The notes beneath the pieces were generated by a model that did not search any database, had not been told where the DNA came from, and was given only the letters and a program-made list of their open reading frames with translations. Of a stretch of 64,000 nt of DNA, positions 1,945 to 38,602 are shown piece by piece. Numbering within the stretch: the stretch's first letter is position 1; every line of letters starts with the position of its first letter. Source of the DNA: an uncultured Pseudomonadota bacterium. GTDB lineage: Bacteria; Babelota; Babeliae; Babelales; RVW-14. A program made the translations under genes and the position numbers. The stretch covers positions 1,710-65,709 of the forward strand of contig CAZGPI010000003.1 of the NCBI GenBank assembly GCA_964527595.1, given 5' to 3'.

Positions 1945-3855
1945 ATGAAAAATTTATTGATAGAAGATATTGCATTGTGGGAAGCTCAGGCCGAAAAGCT
2001 ACCATGGTTTAAAAAATGGACAAAGGTTCTTGACGGAATAACACCTTTTTACAGCTGGTTTAAGGGCGGGCTTATTAATGCCTCGCATGCTTGTTTGGAT
2101 GTCCATATACAAGCTGGCCGTGGCGAACATACCGCAATTTTATGGGAAAATGAAAAGGGCGACAAGCGAAGCGTAAGCTATCAAGAGCTTTATGAATTAA
2201 CTAATCGCATTGCATTTGAGTTACGCCTTCTTGGTGTAAAAAAGGGTGATACCGTTGTGGTCTATTTGCCCATGATTCCTGAAGCGGTTGCAACTATGTT
2301 GGCTATTGCTCGGCTTGGCGCAATTCACGTCGTCGTATTTTCTGGCTTTGGCGCAGACGCATTACGTGATCGGATTACTGACGTTGGTGCCAAAATAGTA
2401 GTAACTACCGATTTTGATATTAGGCGCGGCAAACGAATTCCATTAAAGGAGTTTGTTGATAAAGCGGTTGAGCAGACATCCGGCGTTAGTGTTGTTTTAG
2501 TTGATTCCATTCTTAGGGGGTTTGCCAAGGGGGAACGCCTTGAAGAATATTATGTATTACCCGAACCCGTTGAATCATCGCATCCACTTTTTGTTTTATA
2601 CACCTCCGGCTCAACAGGAAAACCAAAAGGCATTATGCATTCGACCGGCGGTTATCTAACCTATGTTTATTCAACGATAAAATGGGCATTTAATATTAAT
2701 GAATCATCGGTTTATTGGTGTACCGCCGATATTGGATGGATTACCGGACATTCTTATGTAGCTTATGGGCCACTTATGCACGGTGCTACGATGGTGATGT
2801 ACGATGGTGCACCTGATAGTCCGCAACCAGATATTTGGTGGCAACTTATTGAACGATATAAAGTAACTATTTTTTATACGGCACCGACCGCTTTGAGATT
2901 TTTTATGAAGTTGGGCGATGCATTAGTACGCAAACATGATCTTTCTAGCTTACAAGTCTTAGGCTCAGTTGGTGAACCGCTTAATCCGCAGGTATGGCAT
3001 TGGTATAACGATGTTGTTGGCGGCCAGCGTTGCCCGATTATTGATACGTGGTGGCAGACCGAAACAGGTGGTTTTATGATTGCTCCAACGGCATTTTGTC
3101 ATCCTGAACTTGTTTCAGGATCCATTAAGCCAGGTTCGGTTGCTCAACCATTACCAGGCATCGAGGCTGGAGTTGTAGATGAATTTGGTGAGCCGGTTGA
3201 GGCAGAAACACGCGGCTTTTTGGTAATCAAAAAACCGTGGCCCGGAATGCCGCTTGGTTTTTTTGGCCAAGACCAAGAGCGATACCTCAAAACTTATTGG
3301 GAACGTTTTCCCGGCATGTATTTTTCTGGCGATTATGCCATAAAAGATGCTGATGGTTATTTTTGGATGTTGGGCCGCGCCGACGAAGTGCTTAATATTG
3401 CTGGCCATCGTGTTGGGACTGCTGAAATTGAATCGGCTATGCTTACGCATTCGGCGGTTGCCGAGGCGGCGGCTATTGGAGTGACCGATGATATTAAGGG
3501 GGAAACGGTTGTGGTCTTTGTTATTTTGAGAGATGAATATTCGTCCGCCCAAAATATCTCTAGGGGGTTTTCCAAGGGGGAACGCCTTGGAGATAATCTA
3601 CAGGCCGTTCCCTCCTGTACCTCCCTAGAAAAAGAACTTATTGTTTGCGTCCAAGAACGCATTGGAAAATTTGTAACCCCATCGGGTGTCCACATCCTTA
3701 CCAAATTACCTAAAACAAGATCAGGAAAAATTATGCGTCGAGTGCTTAAGGCAATGGTGCATAATACTCCTCTTGGCGATGTGACGACTATGGAAGATGA
3801 TAGTGTTATTGAAGAAGTGCTTGCGGTTTACCGAGACTTTTTAGCGCGACGCTAG
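1945..3855 (+). CDS. acs: Acetyl-CoA synthetase with four in-frame repeat copies
   Basis: YTSGSTGKPKG, WCTADIGWITGHSY, DTWWQTETGG and LPKTRSGKIMRR motifs. Confidence 0.95.
   Translation: MKNLLIEDIALWEAQAEKLPWFKKWTKVLDGITPFYSWFKGGLINASHACLDVHIQAGRGEHTAILWENEKGDKRSVSYQELYELTNRIAFELRLLGVKKGDTVVVYLPMIPEAVATMLAIARLGAIHVVVFSGFGADALRDRITDVGAKIVVTTDFDIRRGKRIPLKEFVDKAVEQTSGVSVVLVDSILRGFAKGERLEEYYVLPEPVESSHPLFVLYTSGSTGKPKGIMHSTGGYLTYVYSTIKWAFNINESSVYWCTADIGWITGHSYVAYGPLMHGATMVMYDGAPDSPQPDIWWQLIERYKVTIFYTAPTALRFFMKLGDALVRKHDLSSLQVLGSVGEPLNPQVWHWYNDVVGGQRCPIIDTWWQTETGGFMIAPTAFCHPELVSGSIKPGSVAQPLPGIEAGVVDEFGEPVEAETRGFLVIKKPWPGMPLGFFGQDQERYLKTYWERFPGMYFSGDYAIKDADGYFWMLGRADEVLNIAGHRVGTAEIESAMLTHSAVAEAAAIGVTDDIKGETVVVFVILRDEYSSAQNISRGFSKGERLGDNLQAVPSCTSLEKELIVCVQERIGKFVTPSGVHILTKLPKTRSGKIMRRVLKAMVHNTPLGDVTTMEDDSVIEEVLAVYRDFLARR
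2514..2542 (+). repeat. Family C element inside acs (RGFAKGERL)
   Basis: tagggggtttgccaagggggaacgccttg. Confidence 0.9.
3094..3125 (+). repeat. Family A element inside acs (FCHPELVSGSI)
   Basis: ttttgtcatcctgaacttgtttcaggatccat. Confidence 0.9.
3560..3628. repeat. Composite C + inverted B element inside acs (RGFSKGERLGDNLQAVPSCTSL)
   Basis: ctagggggttttccaagggggaacgccttgga-gataatcta-caggccgttccctcctgtacctccctag. Confidence 0.9.
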
Positions 3856-4217
3856 CGTTTGCTGGCTTTGCCTTTAATTTCTTCAATCGGATATTTTAAC
3901 GCCGTTTTTTCAAGTTTTTCCAAAAGAATTGTTGAGACATCAAAGCCAAGCGTATCGGCAAATCCAAGGCATGATTGAAGTATGTCCCCAAGTTCATCCT
4001 TAAGGTTTTGCTTGAATTCAGCGTTATCATTAAGCATTTGCTTAACCGTTTGCGTGTCTTTCCACAAAAAAAGTTCAAGCAATTCTGATGCTTCTACGCA
4101 GATGTCCATGGCCAAGTTTTGTGGGGTATGAAATTGACCCCACTCACGATCTTCGCGAAATTTTTTAACCGCATTTTTGAGTTCTAAGACCGTTGTTTGA
4201 GCATCATTATGTTTCAT
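3852..4217 (-). CDS. MazG-like nucleotide pyrophosphohydrolase
   Basis: REWGQFHTPQNLAMDICVEASELLELFLW...DELGD, all-alpha NTP pyrophosphatase motif. Confidence 0.9.
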   Translation of the reverse strand: MKHNDAQTTVLELKNAVKKFREDREWGQFHTPQNLAMDICVEASELLELFLWKDTQTVKQMLNDNAEFKQNLKDELGDILQSCLGFADTLGFDVSTILLEKLEKTALKYPIEEIKGKASKR

Positions 4218-4373
4218 ATCATTGATCCTTTAATATTATTTTTTATACTGGTGTTTCAAGTTTATGATTTTTCTGCTTTTTGCCAAGAAAGAAGTGATGA
4301 CAAAATGAGCTTCGCGGTGTATAGTTTTCCAAGATAAAAGGAATGGAGAACTTGGTTAAGGTAGTATGTTCAT

Positions 4374-5705
4374 ATGATTGCAAAATCAAGCCATGTTAAA
4401 GATTTTTACAAAAAAAATTGGCAAGAGCGATTAGCTTTCGTCAAATCGTTTGCTCATTTATCAGATGAAGAGGTTGAGCTTCTTAAGTTGGTGCGTACCG
4501 TTGATGGTTATGTATACGATCCAACAATCGAAAATGTTGTTTCTGGTATTGTCATTCCGCTCGGAATTGCGACTAATTTTATCATCAATGGCAAAGACTA
4601 TTTGATTCCAATGGCAACAGAAGAACCAAGTGTTGTTGCCGGCGCCTGTAATGCTGCAAAACTTGCGCGCCCAAATGGCGGATTTTCGGTTTGTGCTGAC
4701 GATCCGATTATGATAGGCCAACTATTAATTGTTGGCATTGATGATTTTAAAAAGGCCGAAAAGGCCTTTTCTAGTCTAACCGATTCTTTTTTGGCGATAG
4801 CCAATGCACAAGATCCATTTTTGGTAACTATTGGTGGTGGTGCTCGCGAACTCTCTATACGTGAGTTGCAATCACCGCGTGGATTATTTTTAGTTATTCA
4901 TCTGCTGGTTAATGTTAAAGATGCCATGGGCGCCAATATTGTTAATAGTATGCTTGAAGCCTTGGCACCAGTTATTGTTGATGCTATTGGTGGAACCGCG
5001 CGCGCAAAAATTGTTTCTAATTTGGCAACCAGCCGGATGGTTACTGCCACGGCAACCTGGAAACATGAGCTTCTTGGTAAAGAATTAATTGAAGCATTAT
5101 TGGATGTTTATACCTTTGCCTGTGTTGATCCGCATCGCGCGGTGACGCATAACAAAGGGATTATGAATGGTGTTGATGCTGTTGCCTTGGCAACAGGGAA
5201 TGACTTCCGTGCCGTTGAGGCAGGAGCTCATGGATTTGCGGCAACGGTTTGTTACGAATCTTCATATCAACCATTAACCCATTATGAACTTAATGAACAT
5301 GGAGATTTGGTTGGCACACTTCGCATGCCATTAGCTGTTGGCGTTGTTGGTGGTACGACCAAAAGTAATTCAATTGCTTCTTTATGTTTGAAAATTCTTG
5401 GTGTACAAACAGCAGCCGAACTTGCGGGTATTATGGCGGCCGTTGGTTTAGCACAAAATTTCGCGGCGCTTAAAGCGTTGGCAAGTGAAGGAATTCAAAA
5501 AGGGCACATGCGATTACATAGTCGTAACGTTGCCATTAACGCCGGCATTCCACATAACTTGGTTGATGATATTGCGCGGCGCATGGTTGATGAAGATAAA
5601 ATTTCTTTTGATCGGGCTAAAGAACTTCTTATTATTGTAGGGCGTTCCCCCCTAAACCCCCCTAATAATTCTTTAGCAACTTCAGCAACTCAGGATAAAT
5701 TGTGA
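4374..5705 (+). CDS. mvaA: Class II HMG-CoA reductase
   Basis: ENVVS, PMATEEPSVVA, DAMGAN, RAVTHNKGIMNG, GNDFRAVEA and GIQKGHMRLH motifs. Confidence 0.95.
   Translation: MIAKSSHVKDFYKKNWQERLAFVKSFAHLSDEEVELLKLVRTVDGYVYDPTIENVVSGIVIPLGIATNFIINGKDYLIPMATEEPSVVAGACNAAKLARPNGGFSVCADDPIMIGQLLIVGIDDFKKAEKAFSSLTDSFLAIANAQDPFLVTIGGGARELSIRELQSPRGLFLVIHLLVNVKDAMGANIVNSMLEALAPVIVDAIGGTARAKIVSNLATSRMVTATATWKHELLGKELIEALLDVYTFACVDPHRAVTHNKGIMNGVDAVALATGNDFRAVEAGAHGFAATVCYESSYQPLTHYELNEHGDLVGTLRMPLAVGVVGGTTKSNSIASLCLKILGVQTAAELAGIMAAVGLAQNFAALKALASEGIQKGHMRLHSRNVAINAGIPHNLVDDIARRMVDEDKISFDRAKELLIIVGRSPLNPPNNSLATSATQDKL
5637..5665 (-). repeat. Family B/C element in the HMGR C-terminus (VGRSPLNPP)
   Basis: Reverse complement reads ttaggggggtttaggggggaacgccctac. 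Confidence 0.75.
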
Positions 5706-6859
5706 TCACCGGTATCTTGGGATACGGTGCATACTTACCTCGTTGGCGCCTCAAAGGTTCTGATATTGCTCAAGCATGGTCAAACGATTGGGAAAAAATT
5801 TTTGCCAGTATTGCAGTGCACGAAAAAGTAGTCCCATCAATTGATGAAGATACAACTACTATCGCCGTTGCTGCATCAGTTAATGCGCTTGCTCGCGCCG
5901 GTATTTCTGCCGATATCATTAATGCAATTTTTGTGGGGAGTGAGAGCCATGTATATGCCGTCAAGCCGACCGCAACTATGGTTGCTCAAGCATTAGGTAT
6001 TAACAAATTTAGTCACGCGGCCGATCTTGAATTTGCCTGCAAAGCAGGAACGGCTGCACTTATGACCTGTTGCTCTTTGGTCGGTTCAGGCATGGCAACT
6101 CATGCGCTTGCTATTGGTGCCGATACGGCACAAGCTGCTCCGGGCGATATTCTTGAATATACAGCGGCGGCCGGTGGTGCAGCATTTATTGTTGCTCGGG
6201 ATAATGACTATTCCGGGGAGGTGCCGGAGGGAACGGCCGGCGTATCCATTTGTGATATTGATTTTCCGGGGAGGTGCGGGAGGGAACGGCCCGCTAATAT
6301 TGCTAATCAATCCTTATTAGCCATTATCGAACATACGTGTTCCCTAACCACCGACACACCAGATTTTTGGCGCCGACCTACCGAAAATTATCCAGAACAC
6401 ACCGGACGGTTTACCGCCGAGCCAGCATATTTTCATCATGTTGCTACGATTACTCAAGAAATTTTACGCCAAGTTAATTTATCTCCGTCCGATATTGACC
6501 ACGTTATTTTTCACCAACCCAATGGTCGCTTTCCGGTAAATATAGCCAAGCGTCTTGGATTTTCTAAAGACGCTTTAACCCATGGCCTTCTTGCCCCAAA
6601 TGTGGGTAATACTTATAGCGCGGCAACGTTACTTGGCCTGACCGCGGTTCTTGATAATGCGCAACCCGATCAACGAATATTGGTTGTTAGTTATGGGAGT
6701 GGAAGCGGTTCAGATGCCTTATTGTTGCGTACTACCGAGCATCTTATTCCGCGGCGAGCACGTGCTCCAATAACTGCCGATTATATTGCGCGTAAGGAAT
6801 ATGTAACGTATCAACAATATCGGCGCATTATGGAAATTGTTCACGGGGGTGATCGATGA
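5702..6859 (+). CDS. mvaS: Archaeal-type HMG-CoA synthase with a repeat-containing insertion
   Basis: DLEFACKAGT, TPDFWRR, FHQPNGRFP, VGNTYSA and SYGSGSGSDA motifs. Confidence 0.93.
   Translation: MITGILGYGAYLPRWRLKGSDIAQAWSNDWEKIFASIAVHEKVVPSIDEDTTTIAVAASVNALARAGISADIINAIFVGSESHVYAVKPTATMVAQALGINKFSHAADLEFACKAGTAALMTCCSLVGSGMATHALAIGADTAQAAPGDILEYTAAAGGAAFIVARDNDYSGEVPEGTAGVSICDIDFPGRCGRERPANIANQSLLAIIEHTCSLTTDTPDFWRRPTENYPEHTGRFTAEPAYFHHVATITQEILRQVNLSPSDIDHVIFHQPNGRFPVNIAKRLGFSKDALTHGLLAPNVGNTYSAATLLGLTAVLDNAQPDQRILVVSYGSGSGSDALLLRTTEHLIPRRARAPITADYIARKEYVTYQQYRRIMEIVHGGDR
6212..6294 (+). repeat. Two tandem family B elements inside HMGS
   Basis: tccggggaggtgccggagggaacggccggc (6212-6241) and ttccggggaggtgcgggagggaacggcccgc (6263-6294), read in two different frames (SGEVPEGTAG; FPGRCGRERPA). 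Confidence 0.9.
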
Positions 6860-8052
6860 AAATTCCTGTATTAGGAATTGGGTGTACACCGTTTGGTGAA
6901 TTATGGCATCACAGCCTTGCCGACCTTTTAGCTCAATCGCAACACGAAGCATTACGTGATGCCCATCTTAAACCTTCAGATATTGATATGCTTTTTGTGG
7001 CCAATATTGGTGCTGAATTATGGGGCGGACAAGGTCATCTTGGTGCATTGGCTGCCGATGTTCTTGGCGTCTCGGTTCCTTCAATACGCATCGAATCTGC
7101 ATGCGCTTCGGGAGGTATGGCATTAGCGGCTGGCGTGATGGCAATTATGTCCGGTTCTGCGCGTGTGGTTATGATAAGCGGTGTAGAAAAAATGACCGAC
7201 GTTGATCCTGCAACCGTGACCGCCGGACTTATGGGCGCCTGTTTGCGTGATGCTGAATATATGGCCGGGGCTTCATTTGCCTCGTTGTTTGCGTTGGTGA
7301 CACGTCAGTATTTTCATACCTATGGTATTGGGCGCGAACACCTTGCGGCTGTGAGTGTCAAAAACCATGCGCATGCATTACTCAATCCGTTGGCGCATAT
7401 ACGCAAAAAAATTTCGATTGATGATGTGATGCGATCACCAATGATTGCCGATCCATTATCACTCCTTGATTGTTCACCAATTTCTGATGGTGCGGCGACA
7501 ATTATTTTGGGAAGCACTCGTTGCCAAAATGGCGGTGATTTGGCTGGCGTAAATATCATCGCCTCTTCTCAAGCAACCGACACGATGACAATCGCTGCTC
7601 GGCCAACCCTTACTTCATTTGCTGCTACCAAAAATTCGGCCGCGCGCGCATTTGCTCAAGCGGGCATTACGCCCGATATGGTTAATGTTGCCGAGGTGCA
7701 CGATGCATTTACGATGGCTGAGATTATTGCGCTCGAGGATTTAGGCTTTTCTGCTCCCGGTATGGCTGCATTCCAGGGGGGTGTTGGCTTGTCCGCCATA
7801 GCCTTGGCGACGGCGGAAGGGAACGCCCTACCATCTTATCTCATTAATCCTTCCGGCGGCCTCAAAGCAAAAGGCCATCCCATTGGTGCAACTGGAATTG
7901 CACAAGCCGTTGAGATTGTTTTGCAATTACGAGGAAAAGCAAATGCTCGTCAAGTGCCCGATGCTCGTTTTGGGTTAACGCATAATATGGGCGGAATTGG
8001 AACTACGGTTGCTGTTCATATATTTGAACGTGAACAAGAGAGCGGGTTGTGA
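6856..8052 (+). CDS. Archaeal-type acetoacetyl-CoA thiolase (acetyl-CoA C-acetyltransferase)
   Basis: ESACASGG, GVEKMTD, AEVHDAFT and NPSGGLKAKGHPIGATG motifs. Translationally coupled to HMGS. Confidence 0.93.
   Translation: MKIPVLGIGCTPFGELWHHSLADLLAQSQHEALRDAHLKPSDIDMLFVANIGAELWGGQGHLGALAADVLGVSVPSIRIESACASGGMALAAGVMAIMSGSARVVMISGVEKMTDVDPATVTAGLMGACLRDAEYMAGASFASLFALVTRQYFHTYGIGREHLAAVSVKNHAHALLNPLAHIRKKISIDDVMRSPMIADPLSLLDCSPISDGAATIILGSTRCQNGGDLAGVNIIASSQATDTMTIAARPTLTSFAATKNSAARAFAQAGITPDMVNVAEVHDAFTMAEIIALEDLGFSAPGMAAFQGGVGLSAIALATAEGNALPSYLINPSGGLKAKGHPIGATGIAQAVEIVLQLRGKANARQVPDARFGLTHNMGGIGTTVAVHIFEREQESGL
7775..7831 (+). repeat. Family B/C element interrupted by a nested 30-nt family D hairpin, inside thiolase
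   Basis: aggggggtgttgg[cttgtccgccatagccttggcgacggcgga]agggaacgccctac. Confidence 0.75.
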
Positions 8053-8113
8053 TATACTCAGCAAGCAATAATTATTTTGTTTGCGTATATGATGTAAAAA
8101 TATAAGGAATAAC

Positions 8114-8980
8114 ATGGTATTTCTTAGTCCCCGAAGCGATATGGTATTCAAAAAGCTTTTTGGAACACCAGCCAATAGGGAATTAACCATAAGCTTTTTA
8201 AACAGTGTCTTGGAACTTCCCGAAGGAAAACGCATTGTTAACGTTGAATTTAATGATCCAAATAATCACTTAGAAACGTTGCGCCAAAAATTTAGTATTG
8301 TTGATATTCGTTGTACCGATGAGCGTGGATATCAGTACATTATTGAAATGCAGAATCAAGACTATCACAACTTTGCTCAACGGGCTCAGTATTATAGTTC
8401 CTGTGGTATTTCAGTTCAGTTGCAAGTTGCAGAAGAATACCAAAACTTATTACCGATTATTTTTGTTGGTATTGTTAATTACACGTTATTTCCTCGCCAT
8501 GACCGTTATTTGACGCATCATTACACGCTTGATATACAAGACCAATATCGCGATCTTGATCTAACGGCATATCATTTTATTGAGCTGCCTAAATTCAAAA
8601 AAGAGATAACGCAGGACGATTCGCTTATTGATAAATGGATTTATTTTCTTAAGCACGCAGAAGAAATAGAAGAGATTCCTTCAACACTTCAAAACACAAA
8701 ACCATTTTCTAATGCATTTCATGTATTAACTCAAAGTGCTTGGACCATGAGGGATTTGGCATTATATAAGCAACAGGTTGATACATTACGGGTTGAAAAA
8801 GGTGTATTGAAAACGGCTGAAATGAAGGGGCGTGAAGAAGGCCGTGACGAAGGCCGTGATGAACGTTCGCTTGAAGTTGCTCGCAATATGTTGGCCGAAG
8901 GTATCGATAAAGCCATTATTGCAAAAATTACAGGACTGACCGCTGATGTAATTCAAAAATTAAAAAAGGATGAAGAATAA
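8114..8980 (+). CDS. Rpn-family recombination-promoting nuclease / PD-(D/E)XK putative transposase
   Basis: PRSDMVFKKLFG, SIVDIRCTD, IIEMQ, FIELPKF, KWIYFLK and a C-terminal GREEG...VARNML...IAKITGL tail. Confidence 0.92.
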   Translation: MVFLSPRSDMVFKKLFGTPANRELTISFLNSVLELPEGKRIVNVEFNDPNNHLETLRQKFSIVDIRCTDERGYQYIIEMQNQDYHNFAQRAQYYSSCGISVQLQVAEEYQNLLPIIFVGIVNYTLFPRHDRYLTHHYTLDIQDQYRDLDLTAYHFIELPKFKKEITQDDSLIDKWIYFLKHAEEIEEIPSTLQNTKPFSNAFHVLTQSAWTMRDLALYKQQVDTLRVEKGVLKTAEMKGREEGRDEGRDERSLEVARNMLAEGIDKAIIAKITGLTADVIQKLKKDEE

Positions 8981-8990
8981 CGTGATGACT

Positions 8991-9024
8991 TTTTGTCATC
9001 CTGAACTTGATTCAGGATCCATCC
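8991..9024 (+). repeat. Family A element
   Basis: ttttgtcatcctgaacttgattcaggatccatcc, 10 nt after the Rpn stop. Confidence 0.9.
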
Positions 9025-9109
9025 TATCCTTACATAATTATTCATTAAGCAGTTTAATTGTTGGAGTAAATTTATGATCAATTCATTTAATAATCGCAAA
9101 GGGAGATCT

Positions 9110-12100
9110 ATGATGAGAAAAAAAATATTGTCGCTTTTGTTAGCAACCGTCGGGTTATGTTTTAGTGATGGGTTGCCGGTGGTAACAACAAAAATTGGTA
9201 CCGATATTAATTTTGGTCCGGTTGCCAAAGGGTCTGGTTATGCTTATCTTGGCGCGACAAATAAAGATAGCAAAAATCCAGATCATGCTTTAACCAATGT
9301 TGAAATAAAAAGAGACGGAACTGGTGTTACAATTACCCCTTTTGCGCCAGCCCTAAAAGCAGCAGATAAAACAGCCATCGATAATTCCATCTCAAATAAA
9401 GTTATAAACAATCTTGTATTATGTGGTAATGATCCAATTTTGACCGTTGGTGACGAAAAGATCTACAAAGTAAGCGGTGCAAACAAAGAAGTGGTTACCA
9501 TCAATAAGGTTGCGCTTAAAGATAGCGCTCCGACCGATGTTGATAAACCAATCAGCGCGATTGCCGCTAACGGTAGTTATGTATTTGCCGCCGTTCCAGG
9601 GGCCGGTAAAGCGTGGTCCGCGGTAGATGGTAATAATCGTGGCATCGCGATTCTTAATCCTAATGATTTAACCCAATATGAACCAACTGATTTTGAAAAG
9701 GCAGTAAAAGACGCCGCTCCTGCTGCCCTAAAAAATGATCATGCGGTTAATGCTGCAACAGCTGCGTTTAGTGCAACCAAACCGCTTGCTATTAAGTGGG
9801 ACGATACAACGGGTATCGCTGGCGCTGAATTAACCGAAGACGTTAACATGTATTGGAACGATAATGTTAATCGTCTTTATGTTGGGCTTTCTGGCGTCAA
9901 ACGTGACGACAAAGAAAAAGAAGGCGGTGTTTGTTCAATGCTTGTTGGGCGCATTGATAAAACAGAAAAAACAGAAACAGCAGCAGCAAAGACAAGCTTT
10001 GTTTTATCCCCAATTGTTAAAGATATGGCCGCTCCACGATTAGATGTTGAAATGGCGGCAAAAAAGGTTGCGATAGCCAATGCGGCATGTGTGGTTGCTG
10101 AAGCGATTGCTACCGTCAGTGATGCTAATAAAACTACGACAGCTACATTTGCTTCGGGATATACTATATCGACGCAACAGCCTCAAGTTACAATCCTTCG
10201 TAAGATTTATGACGCAATTAACAAAATAAAAACAGAAAACGATTTAATTACGTGGGTTGATGCAATATATGCTGCAAATTCGGTTGGTGCTGCATATGAC
10301 GCAGCGGCAGCTGATAAGGCTGCAAAGCCACGAGCAGCCGCTCAAATATACGTCGACAATATTGCGTATTCAGAGATGGCTTTAGCCGCTAAAAAATCAT
10401 ACGAGATTGCCGGTTATCCTGCCGATGCTAACCATTCTATCGTTGCCGCAACGGCTGCAACGGCATTACTTGATTTTGATGCTATTGCTAATAAGTGTGG
10501 CTTGGGTGCTAATAATGATAAAACAGACGAATATGATACCGCCATCAAAGCAATGAAAACCTACAAAACAACCCCAACGGCAGCAAACGCTAAAAATTAT
10601 ATTACAAAAGTTATTGCCTATGATGCGGCAATAAGTAAGATTGCTGGAATTGATGTTTATGTTGATACTGACGGCTATTCATCAGCAGATCCGTCAACAA
10701 TGTCAGCTGCAAAAGCATCGGCGAAAAATATCGGCGCCAAAGAAACAGATAAAGTACCTAGTTCATATTTTGATACTGTTGGCGCAGCTGCTCCTCTGCT
10801 TAAGCCATTAGGAAAATCACTTAAAAATATTGTCGCCGCTGCAGCTGGTGTTGCAGATGCAGCTACTGTTGCCGATACAAATAAACTTTTACAAGCGGCA
10901 GCGCTTCCGTATACCAACCAAAAAGTTTCGGCCAACGATTCAACGCGTATGGTTGCTAATTATTTTGCAGGTGCAGGATATCCAAAGGCTCAAACACTTG
11001 ATGCCAATGATGATGCAACCGGTAAGGCGCGCGTCGTTAACCCATTTGGTAACAATGGTAATGATGATATAGCCCTAACGGCCGGTAAGATGGCCAGCCT
11101 CAGGACAACACCACGTGGCCATAACTACTTGATTACCAATGTTATTACAAAAGTTGGGTCAGTAGACAAAAATCTTATTTGCGCATTACCGTTAATGGGT
11201 GGATCGGTAGAAGCCGATAAGGGTACCATTTCAAAGGTGGCAAATGGCGTTGCAACGTTCGATGCTCCTGCCTTAAATATGTCCGAATTACCAATTTTTG
11301 ACGACGTTGCCGTTGTGGTTGGTGGCAATAACGACTTGATTGATGTTGCATTGGGCACCGATATCTTTACTGATGGCGATGATAGTGTTTATATGGCATT
11401 GGGTGGCAATACCCCTTTAAAAGCTGGGCTTGTAAAGTCAACGGCGCTCTTTGACAAAAATGGCATTATTAATGGTTGGACTCAATGGAGGCACGTTGAT
11501 AATTCATTGCAACGCATTAAGGCTGCCGTTTTCGATCCATTTACCAACAAATACATGTTCTTGAAATCAGCAGACTATGTATCAGATTTCAACACCATTG
11601 AATTGACAGGTGGTGGCAACCTGGCGCTTACGCCAGAAGATTTAATGGCCATTCCCCCAACTGCTTTAAAAGCCGTTATGCACAACGCATTTCCGGTAAG
11701 CGATAATGGTATTTTCAATCTTTTTGCTTATGACAAAAATACTCCTGGTTTTGCTAACAATACGCTTGCGGCGATGGTTGCCGTTGGTTACGATACGTTG
11801 AGCTTTGTCGTGATGGCTGATCAAACACAAGGGACGCTCAGATCAGCAGATGAATTTAATATTAATAACGTTTTTACTTTTGCTGATCAAGCACTTAAAG
11901 ATATTGCACCAATTGTGTGCACTGCTATCGCTGAAGCGAATGGTCAAGCATGGTTGTTTGCCGCCGGATATAATGGCTTGACTGTCTTGAGTGCAGCTGA
12001 TGGAAAAGGATTCAGTAGTTTCGACGGAACAAATAGCCAAATTGGTGGTTTGACATTTAAGCAGTTGACCGATAATAGATTCAAGAATATTCGCAAGATT

Positions 12101-12784: not shown

Positions 12785-12812
12785 CGAGTAAAAACATTAA
12801 GAAAGGGTTTTG

Positions 12813-14084: not shown

Positions 14085-14103
14085 GTCTAGTTTGATTATA
14101 TAT

Positions 14104-14140
14104 AAAACCCTCGAGGGCGAAAGACTTCGGGGGTTTTGTT
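14104..14140. terminator. Probable bidirectional intrinsic terminator
   Basis: aaaaccctcgag-ggcgaaaga-cttcgggggtttt between convergent genes. Confidence 0.65.
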
Positions 14141-15107: not shown

Positions 15108-15164
15108 AAAAAACTCCTTAGTAGTCATTACATAATACGCAAACAGTGGCTTACGTTAATCTAA

Positions 15165-16567: not shown

Positions 16568-16615
16568 AGGATTACACACTCTTTAAAAAAACAGCATTGT
16601 CTTTTTTTATCTTTC

Positions 16616-16794: not shown

Positions 16795-16839
16795 ATAGGC
16801 ATTATTATTCAGCAATAGTCTAACATAAGTTTTACAGAG

Positions 16840-18603: not shown

Positions 18604-18628
18604 AAGGTTAATGCTATTGTGGTTAATG

Positions 18629-23089: not shown

Positions 23090-23141
23090 TGCCGGTTTCT
23101 TTTTGGGGAGGAGTAGGAGGGCATTGAGCCCTCCTTACATT

Positions 23142-27511: not shown

Positions 27512-27528
27512 TTAGTTTCCTTGCGGCA

Positions 27529-28335: not shown

Positions 28336-28347
28336 GTTAAATTCCTT

Positions 28348-28376
28348 TAGGGGGTTTCAAGGGGGGATGTCTTGGA
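28348..28376 (+). repeat. Degenerate family C element
   Basis: tagggggtttcaaggggggatgtcttgga. Confidence 0.65.
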
Positions 28377-28461
28377 AGTTAAAATAATCGTTCGCATTAT
28401 GATACAAATTTTTGGAAAAAAAGGATACCGGCGTCTGTTCCGTTATGCTTTTTGTCATCTC

Positions 28462-28546
28462 TTGTCATGCTTGGGCTTGCCCGAGCATCCATCTTAAAAT
28501 TAACCAAATATCAGGATGGACCCCGGATCGAGCCCGGGGTGACAAA
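28462..28546. repeat. Inverted pair of family A elements
   Basis: ttgtcatgcttgggcttgcccgagcatccatc (28462-28493) and gatggaccccggatcgagcccggggtgacaaa (28515-28546). Confidence 0.88.
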
Positions 28547-28551
28547 GAGAC

Positions 28552-31297: not shown

Positions 31298-31756
31298 TTA
31301 CTCTCCTTTTAGATATTTACAACGTCTAAAAAAAAGCTCTAATGCTTCTTTAAGTCCGGCATCTTGGATGTTTGATATAGTTGCAGCCTCTTTGCTATTT
31401 AACGTTGCATTATTTTCAGTATACGTCTTTCGCCGATGTTCAACAAGATATCGCTGGCGCAGATTTGGTTTGATGGTTTTTATATCGGATGTTACAAACC
31501 GGATTGTTTGGATTCTGTTTGCGCCAAGGCAAGTATTAATTTTTTGTTTAAGCATGCTTGAAAGAAGATGTAGTTCTTGTGCCCAAGCAGGGTGAATAAC
31601 CTTAAGCAATAAGGTTTCATTATTAATTTGTGCGATGGTCACCTTATCTTTTAGTGGCCCCATAATAGTATCCCAATTTTGAAACAAGGTTATTTTCCAT
31701 TGTTGTTCTTGGGGAATGATTGTTACGAGGAGGCTTCTGATGGATGTTGCCACCAT
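31298..31756 (-). CDS. DUF721/DciA-family protein
   Basis: WDTIMG...LLLKVIHPAWAQELHL...KQKIN...IQTIRF pattern. Confidence 0.75.
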   Translation of the reverse strand: MVATSIRSLLVTIIPQEQQWKITLFQNWDTIMGPLKDKVTIAQINNETLLLKVIHPAWAQELHLLSSMLKQKINTCLGANRIQTIRFVTSDIKTIKPNLRQRYLVEHRRKTYTENNATLNSKEAATISNIQDAGLKEALELFFRRCKYLKGE

Positions 31757-31925
31757 AGTTCCTAAGTTATGTTTGTTGATGATGGTAAAAAAACTCGAAG
31801 CGATTATGTTTTATTTTATAATGGAATGCGCCAAAGCGCCATCGTTTCTTGAAGTCTCAAAATTTTGTGATTAGAATGATGCATAATTACAGTATTTTTT
31901 GGGTTTTAACCTAAGGATGTTTATT

Positions 31926-33515
31926 ATGCATTACGAATTTTTAGCACTCGTTCCTCCGTTAGTCGTTGTCATATTGGCAGGGATTACAAAAAACGTTCGC
32001 ATATCGGTTGGCGTTGCCATATTGTCCGCTGGTCTTATTGCCACCGAGTTTTCAATACCTAACGCATTGCAGGTAATAGGCGCGCGTTTTTGGGAGGTTC
32101 TTGAACTAAAGACATTGACGTCTTGGGTTGCTTTTGAGCATTGCTCGTATTTGCCTATATGTGGCTTCTTGTTATTGTTGGGCATTATTATCGAACTTAT
32201 TCAGCAGTCTGGTGGTGCTTATGCTTATGGTAATTTTATTATCACAAAACTAAAGAGTGCCAAAAATGTACAACGCGCATCATTGTTATTGTCATTAGTT
32301 TTTTCTATGGACGATTATTTTAGTAGCTTGACGGTCGGCGCCGTTATGCGTCCTGTTACCGATCAGTTTAGAATTGCTCGCGTAAAACTGGCTTTGTTGG
32401 TTAACGTATTGGCATCTCCATTGGCCGTATTGTTCCCATTTTCAAGTTGGGGTGGGCAGATTATAACTTCGTTGCAACAAGCTGGTGTTGGCATTGCGGG
32501 AGCATCGCAGACATTAGTTATTCAAGATCCATTTTCGTTATATCTTGCGGGCATTCCATTTCTATTTTATCCATTAATGGCGATGCTGGCCATTTGGTTT
32601 ATGGTTGGGCGTGGTTTCTCTTTTGGGCTGTTGGCCAAGCATGAAACGATTGCAGCTAAGACCGGAAATTTGTTTGCGGGCAAGGTTTCAGTAACACGTC
32701 AGCCGCCAAAAGGATCAAATAACAGATCGCAAGCTGCTGTTGGTGATTTTTTATTACCAATCTTTTCATTGATATTTTCGGTTATCGGATTTTATTTGAA
32801 CGGCTCGACTATTTTTTTAGCATTAATTAAGGGTGGTCTGCTGACGGTGATTTTTAGTATGTTGTTTTTGTGCATTAGGGGGCACATTGGTTTGTCCGAT
32901 CTTCCTGGCATTATCAAGCAGGGAATTTTGCTTATGGCGCCTTGTGTTCTGGTGGTTGTTCTTATTTGGACATTAAGTACTTTATTGAAAGAAGATTTGC
33001 GTACGGGTAGTTATTTGGCAAGTCTTATAGGCCAACACTTTCCAGTTGTTTTCTTGCCGGCATTATTTTTCTTGGCCGCTGTTTTAATTTCGGCAACCAT
33101 GGGGTCTGCTTGGGGGACCATTGGTACGTTAATGCCCATAGCTGTTCCTATGTTGGTTTCTTTGTCTGGTGTTATAACGCCGGTTACCCCGGGGCAGATT
33201 CTATTATTGTTACCGCTTATCGGTGCAATAATTTCTGGCGCTGTTTCTGGCAATCACTTGTCACCAATTTCTGATGTTATGTTTATGTCAGCAACCAGTT
33301 CTGGTGCTTATCATCTTGATCTTGTTAAGGTGATGGTGAGCTTTGCTATTCCGGTTGTTATTGCAACTTTTTGTGCATTTTTATGCGCCGGCTTTTTGAC
33401 GATGCTGGGATATGGCGTGCTTGCTACGGTACTCATTTCACTTGCCGTTGGCTGTGCGCTTAATTTTAGCGTTATATCGGTATTGCATTGGTTGAGCCAT
33501 CGAACGGCAAAATAA
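31926..33515 (+). CDS. Na+/H+ antiporter NhaC-family transporter
   Basis: MDDYFSSLTVG, PFSSWG, MGSAWGT and GNHLSPISD motifs with many TM helices. Confidence 0.88.
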   Translation: MHYEFLALVPPLVVVILAGITKNVRISVGVAILSAGLIATEFSIPNALQVIGARFWEVLELKTLTSWVAFEHCSYLPICGFLLLLGIIIELIQQSGGAYAYGNFIITKLKSAKNVQRASLLLSLVFSMDDYFSSLTVGAVMRPVTDQFRIARVKLALLVNVLASPLAVLFPFSSWGGQIITSLQQAGVGIAGASQTLVIQDPFSLYLAGIPFLFYPLMAMLAIWFMVGRGFSFGLLAKHETIAAKTGNLFAGKVSVTRQPPKGSNNRSQAAVGDFLLPIFSLIFSVIGFYLNGSTIFLALIKGGLLTVIFSMLFLCIRGHIGLSDLPGIIKQGILLMAPCVLVVVLIWTLSTLLKEDLRTGSYLASLIGQHFPVVFLPALFFLAAVLISATMGSAWGTIGTLMPIAVPMLVSLSGVITPVTPGQILLLLPLIGAIISGAVSGNHLSPISDVMFMSATSSGAYHLDLVKVMVSFAIPVVIATFCAFLCAGFLTMLGYGVLATVLISLAVGCALNFSVISVLHWLSHRTAK

Positions 33516-33537
33516 CGCGATTCTGACCCCGCTCACA

Positions 33538-33584
33538 CCCATTCGATTTCGCTCACTAATGCTCGCTTTACTCAGGGCGAACGG
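33538..33584 (-). repeat. Family E REP-like element (single copy)
   Basis: cccattcga...tactcagggcgaacgg resembles the ccgttcgccctgag...tcgaaggg palindromic class. Confidence 0.45.
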
Positions 33585-33700
33585 ATTTGTTTCGCTAACA
33601 AAATTCAAACATTTGGCCGTTTTTGGGATGAACCCTGGTTTTTTGTGGCGGAGGGGACGCATTCGAAAATAGCAAAAATCACGATTTTACATGAATTTTT

Positions 33701-33748
33701 ATGACAAATGGCAAAAACACGCAATTTTTGCCATTTGTCATTTTTTTT
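33701..33748 (+). terminator. Perfect 17-bp inverted repeat plus T-tract (terminator or operator)
   Basis: atgacaaatggcaaaaa-cacgcaa-tttttgccatttgtcat, then a T run. Confidence 0.5.
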
Positions 33749-33816
33749 GAATGGGATAAACTGGTATCCAGTAGTTGTTTTTTTACTATTAGGATATTTG
33801 TTTCAAGGAGGTTCTT

Positions 33817-34398
33817 ATGAACATTTTTTTAAAGGCGTGTAAACGCTCACTGTTAATTGGAAGTCTTTTAGGCTTCGGTTTGTTTTTTACGTCCGGATAT
33901 GCTGCTATGCCTCAAGGAAAAGCGGTTGGGGAATCAAAGGCGCAAAAAGGATTTGCGGTAAAGGCTTCCAGTGGCGGAACCGGATTATTCAAAAAAATCT
34001 TGGTAATGGCCTTGTTGGCGTCGGCTCGTTGTTATGGAATGGCTGACGTGGGACTGGTTCCTATGGCTAAGGTGGAGTTTGTGGAAAGTTGTAAGATGCG
34101 CGCAGACTTCGTGCACGATTTTAGATATTCAGAAGCAGAGGCTGCCTGGTTTGATGCCAAACAAGCAGCCGCTCGTGAAACCCTTTGTTTATATACGGAT
34201 GATTGCTTAGATAATCCGAAATATTTAGAAAAAGCTGACGCTGCCACTGCTTTATTGGTTAGCAAGCTATCCGCAAACAAGGAGCAACTAAAAGAAGAAT
34301 TGTCCCATTGTGAGATTGACCCTAATTGGGATTTACGTGAATCTTCTGATGGTAGATTTGTTATGAGTTCTAGCGTCTTCGAATCTCGGTTAAAATAA
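33817..34398 (+). CDS. Hypothetical exported protein
   Basis: SD aaggagg and a signal-like N-terminus. Confidence 0.7.
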   Translation: MNIFLKACKRSLLIGSLLGFGLFFTSGYAAMPQGKAVGESKAQKGFAVKASSGGTGLFKKILVMALLASARCYGMADVGLVPMAKVEFVESCKMRADFVHDFRYSEAEAAWFDAKQAAARETLCLYTDDCLDNPKYLEKADAATALLVSKLSANKEQLKEELSHCEIDPNWDLRESSDGRFVMSSSVFESRLK

Positions 34399-34420
34399 CT
34401 GCTGCTATAAGCTAAATATT

Positions 34421-34480
34421 AAGGCGGCTGGTAATTGGTGACAATGATGATATTGTTGCTAGATTGCCAGCCGTTTTTTT
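34421..34480. terminator. Long hairpin terminator between convergent genes
   Basis: ggcggctggtaat...attgccagccgtttttt. Confidence 0.55.
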
Positions 34481-35274
34481 TATAAATCCGAAAAGCAAAA
34501 TTCAAACATTTTACCGGTATGAAACGTTCCGCTGGCCGTTTTTGAAATGACGGCTGTTTGGTGGGGCATTTTTTCAACTAATTGGCTAATGGGAAGAAAT
34601 CCTGTGCAGTGATTTGGTAGTAATATTTGAATGTTTTCTTTGGTGAATAATTCAATTATCTTGGTAATTTCTTCAGGGCTTGAATTTTTTAGATGGAGCC
34701 CTCCGACAAGTGCATAAATTGGAATTTGGTTATTAAATGCTTCTTTGGCATCGGCAAGGATTGTTGGCAATCCATGGTGAGCGCAACCAACAATAACTAT
34801 AAGGCCCTTGCCCTCAAGATATGCAACAAGGTTTATTTCGTGAGTTTTGAGTTGAGAATTAATAGTTGGTCGTTCTTTTATTACCCAAAGGCCAGGGATT
34901 ATCTCTGTATTTTCTCTAACTAAATGTACGTCAGTATAAATCGATTTAAGCATTTTGCTTTTTGGCATGTGTTCGCCAAAGGCATCGGATGTACAATACA
35001 TAGGTTTATTGGCAATATGATGGCTCACTTTTTCCATGCCGCCGCTGTGGTCATCGTGAGGGTGGCTGAGTACAAAGGCATCGATGGTTTTCAGCTCAAT
35101 GTTGAGTTCTTTGGCGTTATGTAATAAAACATCACCAGAATATCCAGTATCAAAAAGAATTTTTTTTCCATCTGCCTCAATCAACATTGATAAACCGTGT
35201 TCACCCCAAAACTGTTCGCTAGGAGCCGTATCTTCAACAAGAACGGTAATTTTTAATGATGCAAGCGAAGTCAT
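34480..35274 (-). CDS. MBL-fold metallo-hydrolase
   Basis: EHGLSMLI, LFDTG, SHPHDDHSGG, GCAH, GGLHL and NHCTG motifs. Confidence 0.9.
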   Translation of the reverse strand: MTSLASLKITVLVEDTAPSEQFWGEHGLSMLIEADGKKILFDTGYSGDVLLHNAKELNIELKTIDAFVLSHPHDDHSGGMEKVSHHIANKPMYCTSDAFGEHMPKSKMLKSIYTDVHLVRENTEIIPGLWVIKERPTINSQLKTHEINLVAYLEGKGLIVIVGCAHHGLPTILADAKEAFNNQIPIYALVGGLHLKNSSPEEITKIIELFTKENIQILLPNHCTGFLPISQLVEKMPHQTAVISKTASGTFHTGKMFEFCFSDL

Positions 35275-35287
35275 TGGTTTCCAGTTT

Positions 35288-35764
35288 CTATTTTATAGCT
35301 ACAAAAATTTTGACTATTGAATGAGCATCATTTGTGCTTTTTGCATCATACCATTCAAAGTCGTTGGTGAACGTCCGCTCAAGGCTTTTATCTTGCCAAA
35401 TATCCATCCATGTTTTTCCGATAGCAGAAGCAAATGGGCCGGTAGCGGTAAAGACCGCGTATTTTGTAGCAGGAATTTCTTTGGTAACCATTCCGGCGGG
35501 AATTGTGTCAGTCTTGGTTACAGGGCAACCAAGAATAAGTGAATAGTGCCCGGTTGTAAGCGAAAAATCTGAGCTATAGTTTGTATACAGTCCTAAAATT
35601 ACATCAGGATTTGTTTTATTTGGTATCGTTGCAAAGAGGTTGGCTTTTTGCTGCTCTTGCCAAAATGTTGGGATTGCAGAAAAGCATTCGTTATTTTGAT
35701 ATGTCGTGCGGAGTTCGGCTCCCATGATGATCATGGCTGGTAATAACACTATTTCAAAGCTCAT
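35288..35764 (-). CDS. GyrI-like effector-binding domain protein
   Basis: LRTT...IPTFW, GLYTNY, IPATKYAVFT, W..IW, RTFTNDFEWYD. SD aggag precedes 35764. Confidence 0.85.
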   Translation of the reverse strand: MSFEIVLLPAMIIMGAELRTTYQNNECFSAIPTFWQEQQKANLFATIPNKTNPDVILGLYTNYSSDFSLTTGHYSLILGCPVTKTDTIPAGMVTKEIPATKYAVFTATGPFASAIGKTWMDIWQDKSLERTFTNDFEWYDAKSTNDAHSIVKIFVAIK

Positions 35765-35921
35765 AAAGCTCCTAAATGATTTGAGCGAATCGATTATTTG
35801 ATAAATACTATAAGCGTAATATGCCAAATAATTGGTGGGTTGTTAAGGCTTGGCGAAAGTCATGCCAGTTTTTTAGAGGACATCTTTTGTGGTAAGCTAA
35901 TGAATGAAATTTATTGATAGA

Positions 35922-35953
35922 ATGGATCCCGGATCGAGTCCGGGATGACAAAA
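35922..35953 (-). repeat. Family A element
   Basis: atggatcccggatcgagtccgggatgacaaaa. Confidence 0.9.
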
Positions 35954-36025: not shown

Positions 36026-38602
36026 ATGGTTTTGCTTGATATTTTACAGGAGAGTCGTAAAAAATATGCCGAGCATCCGGCATTAATTATGCGTGTTGGT
36101 TATCGAACGGTAACGTTAACATTTGCTCAGGTATATGAACTTGCGCAAAGAACGGCAGCCTTTTTAGAAGCTCATGGAGTTGGTAAGGGGGATTGCGTGG
36201 CCGTTTGTGCGCCTAATTCTCCGTATTGGGCCTGTTTGTTTTGGGGATGCTTGTTGCGCGGGGTGGTGATTGTACCACTTAATATTCAGAGCACCGATGC
36301 GATGATTGCCAAGATTATTGAGCAAACAGGGGCGAAATTTCTATTTACCACTCGAGGCATGGCGTTAGGGGGTTCTCCAAGGGGGAACGCCTTGGAGGTA
36401 TTATTGAAGCAGGCGGTTCCCTCCTGCACCTCCCTGGAACTTGCTCTTTTGGATGAAATTATTGCTCCATATGCGGGTAAAAATATTGAGCCCATAAAAA
36501 CATTATCCGATGATTTAATTGAAATTTTATACACCTCGGGGACGACCGGTGAACCCAAGGGCGTTATGCTTACTCACCGAAATCTTATGACAAATCTCCA
36601 CGCGATACAGCAATGTTTAATGTTGAAAGAACAACATGAACGTGTTTTATCTATCTTGCCGTTAAGCCATATTCTTGAACAAATGGTTGGTTTTTTACTG
36701 CCATTTTCTTGTGGTGCGACAATTGTTTATGCGCATAGTCATGGAGCGATTGCTCAATTACTTGCAGAATTTAAGATAACCAAAATGGTTGCAGTCCCAG
36801 AATTTTTAAAAGTTTTGATGGCTCGTATTATGACTAAAGTTAACGATGCTGGATGGCAAGCGACGGTTAATCGATTAATGAAATTTAGTTTGCATATGCC
36901 ATGGTGGATTCGGCGGTTAGTTTTTCGTCCAATACTTAAGCCGCTTGGTGGATGCCTGAATATGGTTGCATCGGGTGGAGCCCCGCTTGATCCTGAAATT
37001 GAACAGCAATGGAATGCACTTGGCGTCCAAGTACTTCAAGGATATGGATTAACTGAAACTTCGCCCGTACTTACGAATAATACCTTTGCCGATCATCGGC
37101 CAGGGAGTGTTGGGCGGGTTGCGGCTGGCGTCAGTATTCGTTTAGTTGGCGGTGAAATTCAGGCAAAGGGTGACAGCGTGTTTAGTGGTTATTTTAAAAA
37201 TGAACAAAAAACGCGTGAAGTTTTTACCGATGATGGATGGTTTATGACCGGTGATATGGGGCAATTGGACGCCGATGGTTTTTTGTTTATTAAGGGACGG
37301 CGTAAATACATGATCAAGGGTGCTGGTGCCCAAAACGTTTATCCGGAAGATATCGAGGAATTTTTAAACCGAGAATCGATGATTAAGGATAGTTGTGTTG
37401 TTGGCCTTGAGCAAACGGGTGGGGCTGTCCAAATTCATGCGGTATTATTACTCAAAGAAGCTTTGTCTAACGCCGAGATTGAGGCGTTGGTTAATCGTGT
37501 TAACGACCAATTGGCAACGTACCAACATATCGGTGGATGGAGTGTTTGGCCGGATGAAGATTTTCCGCGGTCGGCGACGCGTAAAATAAAAAAAGAAGAG
37601 GTAATTACTTTTTTGAAGGCTGGTACTGATCATGGGTCTTTTTCTCATGGTGGTCATGCTGCTGGGCGGTTAGAGATTTTGTTGTCAACGATGACGGGCG
37701 TTCCTGCGGAAAATATTGAACCGACATCGCTTCTTGTACGGCAATTACATATGGATTCATTAATGACCGTTGAGCTTTTGGCACGAATTGAGGATGCCTT
37801 TGCTATTTCGGTTGATGGGTGGATTATTGGGCCAACTACCACGGTTGCCGATATTGAAGAGTGGATTAGCCACGGCGCTCCTGTGCAAAAGCCGGTGCGC
37901 TTAAAGGCATGGCCTCGATCATGGTGGGCACGCATACTTAGGGCAATTGGCCAACCAATTGTGGTTGGAATTGTGCGTTTGTTTGCGCGAGTACGAGTTG
38001 AAGGATTAGAGAATCTTGAAAAAATTGTTCCTAGGGGGTTTGCCAAGGGGGAACGCCTTGGCGATATGCCTGTCATCTTTATGCCCAACCATGTAAGCAT
38101 GATAGACCCCTTTTTTTTGATGGCAGCATTGCCCGCAAAAATACGCCGCCGCATTGCCTTTGCTTCGGCCGTTGACGTTTTGTACAAAGACTTTTGGTAT
38201 ATAGTTCCGCTTACCGAATTACTTGCCTATACATTTCCATTTCCTCGTAAAGAAACAGAGAATGTTGTGCAGGGTCTGACGCTTATGGGGCAAGTTCTTG
38301 ATCATGGCTATTCGGCCGTTGTTTTTCCCGAGGGGCAGGTTTCTCGCGATGGACAATTACAGCCTCTTAAAGCGGGCGCTGGATTGGTGGCAAGTCAAAT
38401 GATGGTGACGGTGATACCGGTTGCATTGATTGGGGTGCCGGCAATTGTTGGGCCAGACAGCCTTTTCCCTTCGCATCGTGGTACGGTTGCCGTTCTTTTT
38501 GGTAAGCCTATAAAGATGAGCCGAATGACTTCTATTGCCCAGGCAACGGCTGAAATTGAAAAGGCGATGAGGATGACTCAAGAAAAAAAAAGAGATTTTT
38601 AG
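36026..38602 (+). CDS. Fatty acyl-AMP/CoA ligase - ACP - PlsC acyltransferase fusion
   Basis: YTSGTTGEPKG, QGYGLTETSP and TGDMG (AMP-binding); LHMDSL (phosphopantetheine site); NHVSMID and FPEG (acyltransferase). Confidence 0.92.
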   Translation: MVLLDILQESRKKYAEHPALIMRVGYRTVTLTFAQVYELAQRTAAFLEAHGVGKGDCVAVCAPNSPYWACLFWGCLLRGVVIVPLNIQSTDAMIAKIIEQTGAKFLFTTRGMALGGSPRGNALEVLLKQAVPSCTSLELALLDEIIAPYAGKNIEPIKTLSDDLIEILYTSGTTGEPKGVMLTHRNLMTNLHAIQQCLMLKEQHERVLSILPLSHILEQMVGFLLPFSCGATIVYAHSHGAIAQLLAEFKITKMVAVPEFLKVLMARIMTKVNDAGWQATVNRLMKFSLHMPWWIRRLVFRPILKPLGGCLNMVASGGAPLDPEIEQQWNALGVQVLQGYGLTETSPVLTNNTFADHRPGSVGRVAAGVSIRLVGGEIQAKGDSVFSGYFKNEQKTREVFTDDGWFMTGDMGQLDADGFLFIKGRRKYMIKGAGAQNVYPEDIEEFLNRESMIKDSCVVGLEQTGGAVQIHAVLLLKEALSNAEIEALVNRVNDQLATYQHIGGWSVWPDEDFPRSATRKIKKEEVITFLKAGTDHGSFSHGGHAAGRLEILLSTMTGVPAENIEPTSLLVRQLHMDSLMTVELLARIEDAFAISVDGWIIGPTTTVADIEEWISHGAPVQKPVRLKAWPRSWWARILRAIGQPIVVGIVRLFARVRVEGLENLEKIVPRGFAKGERLGDMPVIFMPNHVSMIDPFFLMAALPAKIRRRIAFASAVDVLYKDFWYIVPLTELLAYTFPFPRKETENVVQGLTLMGQVLDHGYSAVVFPEGQVSRDGQLQPLKAGAGLVASQMMVTVIPVALIGVPAIVGPDSLFPSHRGTVAVLFGKPIKMSRMTSIAQATAEIEKAMRMTQEKKRDF
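36365..36436. repeat. Composite C + inverted B element inside the CDS (LGGSPRGNALEVLLKQAVPSCTSL)
   Basis: ttagggggttctccaagggggaacgccttggag-gtattattgaa-gcaggcggttccctcctgcacctccctg. Confidence 0.9.
38031..38062 (+). repeat. Family C element inside the CDS (RGFAKGERLG)
   Basis: ctagggggtttgccaagggggaacgccttggc. Confidence 0.9.

Follow-up and report, generated by a model that had tools for sequence, protein, structure and literature searches.

In-frame hairpin repeats concentrate in mevalonate and acetate–CoA ligase genes of a likely Dependentiae bacterium

Short hairpin repeats of three families lie in frame within conserved enzyme genes of a small bacterial genome, and their concentration in the genes of the mevalonate pathway and acetate–CoA ligase (Acs) is real and beyond chance. 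Probably they are selfish REP-type hairpins that survive in genes only where a predicted surface loop tolerates added or replaced residues, and whose occupied sites are hit again. The DNA analysed, hereafter the window, is a stretch of 64,000 nucleotides (positions 1710-65709 of contig C3) from a genome, G000, of 1.36 Mb in 39 contigs. It carries genes for Acs, HMG-CoA reductase (HMGR), archaeal-type HMG-CoA synthase (HMGS) and thiolase, mevalonate kinase (MVK), a DUF35-type protein, which we take to be a likely partner of the thiolase and HMGS, phosphomevalonate kinase (PMK) and diphosphomevalonate decarboxylase (MVD). Those relatives of MVD and Acs that have a name come under Babeliales, Dependentiae or TM6, and the organism is likely, judging from its sequence, an intracellular member of the Dependentiae. 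In the available text on this phylum, mevalonate is the sole isoprenoid route (PMC6107057) and a parasitic lifestyle is proposed (PMC4776705).

Genes and elements are given below by window position; G001 is the sister species, and the remaining G numbers are other genomes compared.

51..193, plus strand: 3' remnant of an Ssn-like GIY-YIG gene (51-158), then an inverted A copy (162-193)
987..35952, unstranded: nine further intergenic copies from the profile search, A at 987, 8993, 16618, 16700, 28462, 28515 and 35922, B at 1782 and a partial D at 16650
1945..3855, plus strand: acs, acetate–CoA ligase (NCBIfam TIGR02188, above cut-off), four elements at three sites
2514..2542, plus strand: Acs site 1, B/C element of the C variant, overwriting an already shortened loop; an A element here in G001
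3096..3125, plus strand: Acs site 2, A element, net +4 aa against G001
3561..3626, unstranded: Acs site 3, C(+)/B(-) dimer, net +23 aa, common to G001; an A element here in G018
4374..5705, plus strand: HMGR, with a degenerate C copy (5641-5663, minus strand) in the C-terminal tail
5702..6859, plus strand: archaeal-type HMGS
6209..6310, plus strand: clean 34-aa insert in HMGS with tandem B copies (6216-6241, 6269-6294), absent from 24 of 24 aligned homologues
6856..8052, plus strand: archaeal-type thiolase
7774..7833, plus strand: thiolase element of net +9 aa, a B/C shell enclosing D (7786-7818)
15165..16163, minus strand: MVK, no insert
16160..16567, minus strand: zinc-ribbon/OB-fold (DUF35-type) protein (Pfam PF01796, PF12172), no insert
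16840..18105, minus strand: PMK, four elements at three sites
17110..17136, plus strand: PMK, antisense B copy that G001 lacks; the same loop of G033 has an unrelated 80-aa insert
17354..17380, plus strand: PMK, antisense B copy of net +9 aa that G001 lacks
17701..17801, unstranded: A dimer in PMK (17704-17734, 17770-17801), a 33-aa insert common to G001
18659..19633, minus strand: MVD, no insert; the G043 orthologue has an A element
22412..22438, minus strand: B copy, sense, in a GT4 glycosyltransferase (21920-23089, minus strand), net about +5 aa
36026..38602, plus strand: AMP-binding / PP-binding / acyltransferase fusion (acyl-ligase), three elements at two sites
36366..36435, unstranded: acyl-ligase C(+)/B(-) dimer; one sense B in G001, an unrelated 35-aa insert in G032
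38032..38060, plus strand: acyl-ligase C copy, +12 aa; an unrelated 44-aa repeat insert here in G001

The sequence-only reading had counted about 17 copies inside enzymes of the window. Sixteen were recovered by profile search (2514-38060) and the seventeenth, the shell that encloses the inner thiolase element (7774-7830), was read directly, reproducing the counts per gene: Acs 4, HMGR 1, HMGS 2, thiolase 2, PMK 4, GT4 1 and the acyl-ligase fusion 3. The profiles were built from G000 itself, and three codon-shuffled genomes served as the null, in which no profile gave a match of 14 bits or more; 15 of the 16 in-gene window copies scored at least 21.9 bits. The HMGR copy is weak, at 7.0 bits on the level of noise, and sits in a C-terminal tail missing from most of the 17 other rows of the alignment. 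The profile search found no in-gene copy between 38.6 and 64 kb of the window, and MVK and MVD have no insert in G000. All of the reading frames are open and the expected catalytic motifs are present, as that reading had also stated. Its separate families A, B and C had to be redrawn: B and C constitute one family and the inner element of the thiolase belongs to a third, D. An assembly artefact is ruled out, since among the matches listed most sites are spanned without a mismatch by contigs from three further runs, all belonging to one study and one of them perhaps the assembly's own source; the A copy of Acs and the thiolase site were reached, not bridged, by other-run contigs among these matches.

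Directly 3' of the thiolase gene lies a gene for an Rpn-family nuclease/putative transposase (8114-8980), followed by an A copy. At 38691-40197, two adjoining pentapeptide-repeat-like genes with near-duplicated upstream sequence are separated by a 29-bp perfect-spaced inverted repeat.

Alignment with orthologues, the check proposed at the outset, showed that the inserts are real, with net lengths from +4 to +34 aa (HMGS +34; PMK +33, +9 and +9; Acs +23 and +4; acyl-ligase +15 and +12; thiolase +9). In several cases the net gain falls short of the element's length, and host residues have therefore been overwritten, not merely added to. Measured against two repeat-free homologues, whose loop is equally short, Acs site 1 shows a net change of about zero; the notion that the repeat had deleted a native loop was dropped because these homologues already have the short loop. 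Filled and empty sites in the two sister species, compared over 705 kb of the roughly 1.1 Mb of G001 (60 of 160 contigs, 479 orthologues), revealed recent gains in each. By analogy to the palindromic elements of Rickettsia, in-frame inserts had been expected in surface loops, and the predicted models of two enzymes agree with this, placing the sites in low-confidence loops. In the PMK model (pLDDT 89), whose best structure matches include S. pneumoniae PMK 3gon, the inserts have pLDDT values of 46-71 and are predicted to lie between helices and strands, and the three Acs sites fall in lower-confidence stretches of a model with pLDDT 84.

Genome-wide, 47 elements at 39 sites were counted in 32 of 827 genes (own gene calls, genes of at least 200 aa, 12-bit cut-off). 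This count leaves out matches below 12 bits, among them the HMGR and GatB copies, matches within the first 25 residues, genes shorter than 200 aa, one false GatA motif match and gene g0896. The earlier proposal that one pathway is being remodelled survives as an over-representation in mevalonate and lipid enzymes and fails as a claim of specificity, at least 24 hosts lying elsewhere. Outside the window, hosts include iPGM, biotin carboxylase, transketolase, UDP-glucose dehydrogenase, GDP-mannose dehydratase (GMD), three GT4s, two Mur ligases, BacA, an SDR beside FabF and FabD, UvrA, UvrC, MutS, an HhH-GPD glycosylase, TilS, TrmD, GatA and a class I tRNA synthetase. Since informational genes are hosts too, the trait is not pathway-specific.

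The seven mevalonate/Acs genes account for 0.82% of the coding length and hold 8 of the 39 sites. The distribution is not the uniform one that would have spoken against the sequence-only reading: none of 5000 length-weighted simulations placed more than 6 sites in any 16.5-kb window, and significance was kept with only 30% of genes eligible (P=9e-6). Of the 32 hosts, 8 are lipid or isoprenoid genes, compared with 2 of 100 non-hosts in a sample that excludes the window; with a hand-added estimate of 6 in 124 non-hosts, P=0.002. Strong Pfam hits were obtained for 23/32 hosts vs 48/100 non-hosts (sampled from 171 in the fetched loci). A second cluster, of 8 sites, occupies a polysaccharide locus on C2. 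The hosts at C2:15000-55000 are three GT4s, UDP-glucose dehydrogenase, GMD, an unknown gene and a Mur ligase, and the stretch has one intergenic copy. Local hopping alone was rejected as an account of the distribution, in-gene and intergenic densities being in disagreement.

The clusters could alternatively be recombination-prone accessory regions, in which patchy loci are more often exchanged as single-stranded DNA and so acquire and swap hairpins. We consider this unlikely. It is consistent with the two clusters holding 19 of the 39 sites (C3 1-42 kb, 11; C2 15-55 kb, 8), with the patchy occurrence of HMGS (20/60 relatives) and PMK (19/60), and with the action of the Ssn/NTS system on transforming DNA as described in the available text of PMC11893778. 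However, the C2 cluster contains only 2.5 intergenic copies per 100 kb, and C8 and C13, with 45 and 37 per 100 kb, have 2 and 0 in-gene sites. Moreover, many hosts are core genes, and silent sites have diverged to the same degree in hosts as in the background (dS 1.36 vs 1.33).

The three families, whose units have cores of 27-33 bp, differ in structure and setting. Family A is of the CGTC type of REP: its cores comprise a TGTC tag, a stem of 8-9 bp opening with AT, a 5-base loop and a CCA tail, and its copies are mostly intergenic (127 of 154 matches) and often dimers. Inverted A copies flank all seven Ssn-like GIY-YIG loci, two of them remnants. The degenerate SRM pattern is matched by 44 of 116 strong A copies, with 47 matches vs 2 per null genome, and by none of 45 B, 14 C and 19 D copies. 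B and C could be aligned as a single family, whose 5-bp stem is paired in 74 of 75 cells (98.7%), with 14 double changes in 15 copies. Among 251 genomes of this phylum B turned up in 3, all of one genus, and it lies in genes far more often than A does (29/52 vs 7/140). An automatic test put 14 of 19 strong D copies within or up against another hairpin, and inspection by eye about 18. In both G000 and G001, small GIY-YIG genes of a second class have D-like hairpins ahead of them. One such second-class gene (G000 C1:57440-57800) has an internal stop and follows an apparent tRNA/tmRNA 3' end.

Neither the flanks of B and C nor the D copies show a terminal GTAG or CGTC tag, and no RAYT gene was found beside B/C or D. 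A mobiliser of B/C was sought beside its intergenic copies and at the RAYT loci and found at neither; viral contigs gave no match, and metagenome contigs gave none for B, while C occurred there at 11 loci but beside a mobile gene at none of them. As to the features of a MITE, net lengths vary and no target-site duplication is visible, G001 being too diverged to fix the ends. The Rfam search returned three weak matches; all scored far under the gathering threshold, and no in-gene copy was among them. Elsewhere in G000, a Y1 transposase gene (RAYT-like, C1:34850-35780) is flanked by inverted pairs of GTAG-type hairpins, a family that hosts nested D at other loci of the genome. In GatB (C1:30700-30743) a B copy, which is intact in G001, encloses a short A-like hairpin. 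Metagenome loci L413 and L419 of a related organism carry in-frame B/C dimers with further stem variants, presumably in a D-Ala ligase-like gene (in the same loop as a G001 insert) and a MiaB-like gene; the C pattern also occurs on unrelated contigs of about 50% GC (L417, L418 and L420).

A preference for sites, in the sense of recurrent tolerant loops, had been one of the explanations offered, and it is upheld by the use of the same loops in other genera. Outside G000 and G001, 13 inserts of at least 8 aa were found in orthologues of PMK, MVD, Acs and the acyl-ligase, and none in the 16,654 aa of HMGR, HMGS and thiolase of other genomes. Mevalonate, Acs and acyl-ligase proteins of other genera thus contain 13 inserts in 48,455 aa vs 5 in 98,598 aa of controls (P=0.0008), the controls (GyrB, TypA, AlaRS, UvrA and neighbours) being hand-picked and more conserved (61-74% vs 39-56% identity) and the kin not independent. 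In Acs, PMK and the acyl-ligase, 5 of 11 inserts of other genera fall in a loop used in G000, where 0.6 would be expected, and 7 of 10 inserts among 118 further PMK homologues lie at the same three sites. Most of the other-lineage inserts examined are hairpin repeats of other families, and the two motifs tested are both multi-copy within their own genomes.

Further observations were made on these orthologues. The MVD proteins of G017, G038 and G046 have tandem-like peptide expansions of 10-20 aa at one site that are not palindromic. In genus g7 (G041 and G035) PMK lies within open frames of 693 and 751 aa, likely an MVD-PMK fusion, as a 691-aa match containing both domain sets suggests. The best named matches of the archaeal-type HMGS, found in 20 of 60 relatives, are mostly archaeal.

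Turnover at occupied sites is frequent between the sister species. One species has C where the other has A in Acs, and a C+B dimer where the other has a single reversed B in the acyl-ligase; one site in UvrA holds opposite orientations; D is nested in one species only in UvrC, PMK and UvrA, the PMK A dimer of G001 containing a D element and a different stem variant. Stem variants show a compensated switch, to another genome-wide variant, at 3 of 10 shared sites. We take such turnover to reflect insertion and conversion that recur at hairpins, probably by cut-and-repair; the hairpin itself may instead be under selection. Under the preferred reading of selfish hairpins in tolerant loops, mevalonate and acyl-CoA enzymes would collect most copies because they offer several such loops, and an occupied site would attract further events (dimers, nested D and swaps of family, variant or orientation), likely through cut-and-repair at single-strand hairpins. 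Family A is likely spread by the Ssn-like GIY-YIG nucleases that it flanks and D by the other class of small GIY-YIG genes. We predict that the inserts are translated and close to neutral. A bolder proposal is that an occupied loop acts as a standing landing pad, which hairpin-directed single-strand nucleases keep rewriting with other repeats at little change in length, giving recurrent, site-fixed loop replacement in the mevalonate and acyl-CoA enzymes of host-dependent bacteria across genera and phyla; we offer it tentatively and rather doubt it.

Some observations sit less easily with loop tolerance. HMGS and thiolase bear inserts here and none elsewhere, and intrinsic tolerance therefore explains only part of the cluster. 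None of the four in-gene inserts private to G001, counted over 705 kb of its roughly 1.1 Mb, lies in a mevalonate gene. Tolerance would be expected of secreted or membrane-like genes, yet these are under-represented as hosts (6/32 vs 316/795).

Relaxed selection on isoprenoid and lipid efficiency in a host-dependent parasite, with mildly harmful inserts drifting to fixation, was another of the original suggestions, and it appears improbable. The pathway was not found in about two-thirds of the relatives searched, MVK, PMK and MVD lie at the 84th-87th percentile of dN, and parasitism is proposed for the phylum in the available text of PMC4776705. In contrast, dN/dS of the seven genes (0.05-0.16) is inside the background range, Acs, HMGS and thiolase lie at the 10th-28th percentile of dN, and the two fastest genes, MVK and MVD, are without an insert in G000. 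Against G001, hosts have a median dN/dS of 0.072 (n=21) vs 0.090 (n=390; P=0.36, with dS near saturation), and there is no branch acceleration, hosts having no extra substitutions on the G000 branch.

The idea that selection maintains the frame and not the peptide is borne out in part. B is open, and used, in all six frames; however, 19 of 29 copies fall in two of them (chi-square P=0.012), and because this use is uneven the peptide likely matters a little. A shared role at the level of mRNA is not borne out, B being sense in 17 and antisense in 12 cases (P=0.46) and sites differing between sister species. B cores at shared sites are conserved above silent sites, as in GMD, where 43 of 43 bases are identical and about 65% of silent sites differ, and this conservation would also fit a DNA- or RNA-level function. 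Replication-strand bias was absent for A, B and D; C gave 10 vs 2, on few copies. Also improbable is the explanation that the hairpins are retained for such a selected role (as a binding site, an uptake or self mark, or mRNA control), for which the paired and covarying stems, the near-identical cores at shared sites across species and the enrichment in conserved enzymes speak, and against which stand the lack of strand bias, the variation of presence, family and orientation between sister species, the confinement of B to 3 species, the lack of an Rfam family at threshold and the 3 of 10 shared sites that switched stem variant as conversion would.

Coding palindromes have hitherto been treated as rare, scattered accidents. 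The RPEs of Rickettsia are units of 105-150 bp with a conserved peptide, and in the one assayed case, guanylate kinase, the enzyme stayed active (available text of PMC2229807 and PMC10969869). As far as that text goes, the elements described here resemble RPEs, RPE-1 included, as in-frame palindromes in conserved enzymes of a small-genome, likely intracellular host, with hosts under selection. They differ in consisting of 27-33 bp units of three families used in six frames, instead of a single-peptide unit of 105-150 bp, and in often overwriting host residues, nesting and clustering in one pathway. Family A shares the tag, stem, loop and tail of the CGTC-tagged REPs, which include RPE-4/RPE-6 and dRS3 (Di Nocera 2013, PMC3733652), and, like them, is mostly intergenic and often dimeric. 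Intragenic copies in repair and tRNA genes are reported in the main text of that work, matched here by UvrA, UvrC and MutS; in contrast, B/C and D have no tag, Dependentiae are absent from the phyla listed there, and that text, its target-gene supplement aside, describes no metabolic-pathway cluster. The Ssn/SRM system (Chenal 2025, PMC11893778) is alike in its small single-domain GIY-YIG genes between inverted repeats, here of family A. The available text gives NTS as rarely intragenic (2%) and puts mobilisation by Ssn forward as a hypothesis; of the families described here, B, C and D have no match to the SRM pattern. As in GTAG REP/RAYT systems, G000 has two Y1_Tnp genes, one of them flanked by GTAG-type hairpins that D invades, but those hairpins are another family, and A, B/C and D do not flank the Y1_Tnp gene.

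No report joining REPs, in-frame insertion and mevalonate was found in the openly accessible main texts and titles searched, nor one on pathway clustering or same-loop recurrence or, at the level of titles, on such repeats in Dependentiae. In-frame palindromes in Rickettsia and intragenic REPs are already known, and family A, by its sequence features, is a member of the CGTC REPs. The pathway clustering and the same-loop recurrence are apparently new, most likely as an extension of the Rickettsia coding palindromes. With 39 sites in one small genome, the filled and empty sites of the sister species provide natural pairs for testing the neutrality of inserts, and the recurrent inserts give a map of tolerant loops in mevalonate enzymes. 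The system also allows a test of whether Ssn-like GIY-YIG nucleases spread or rewrite REP-type repeats, a question that the available texts of PMC3733652 and PMC11893778 leave open.
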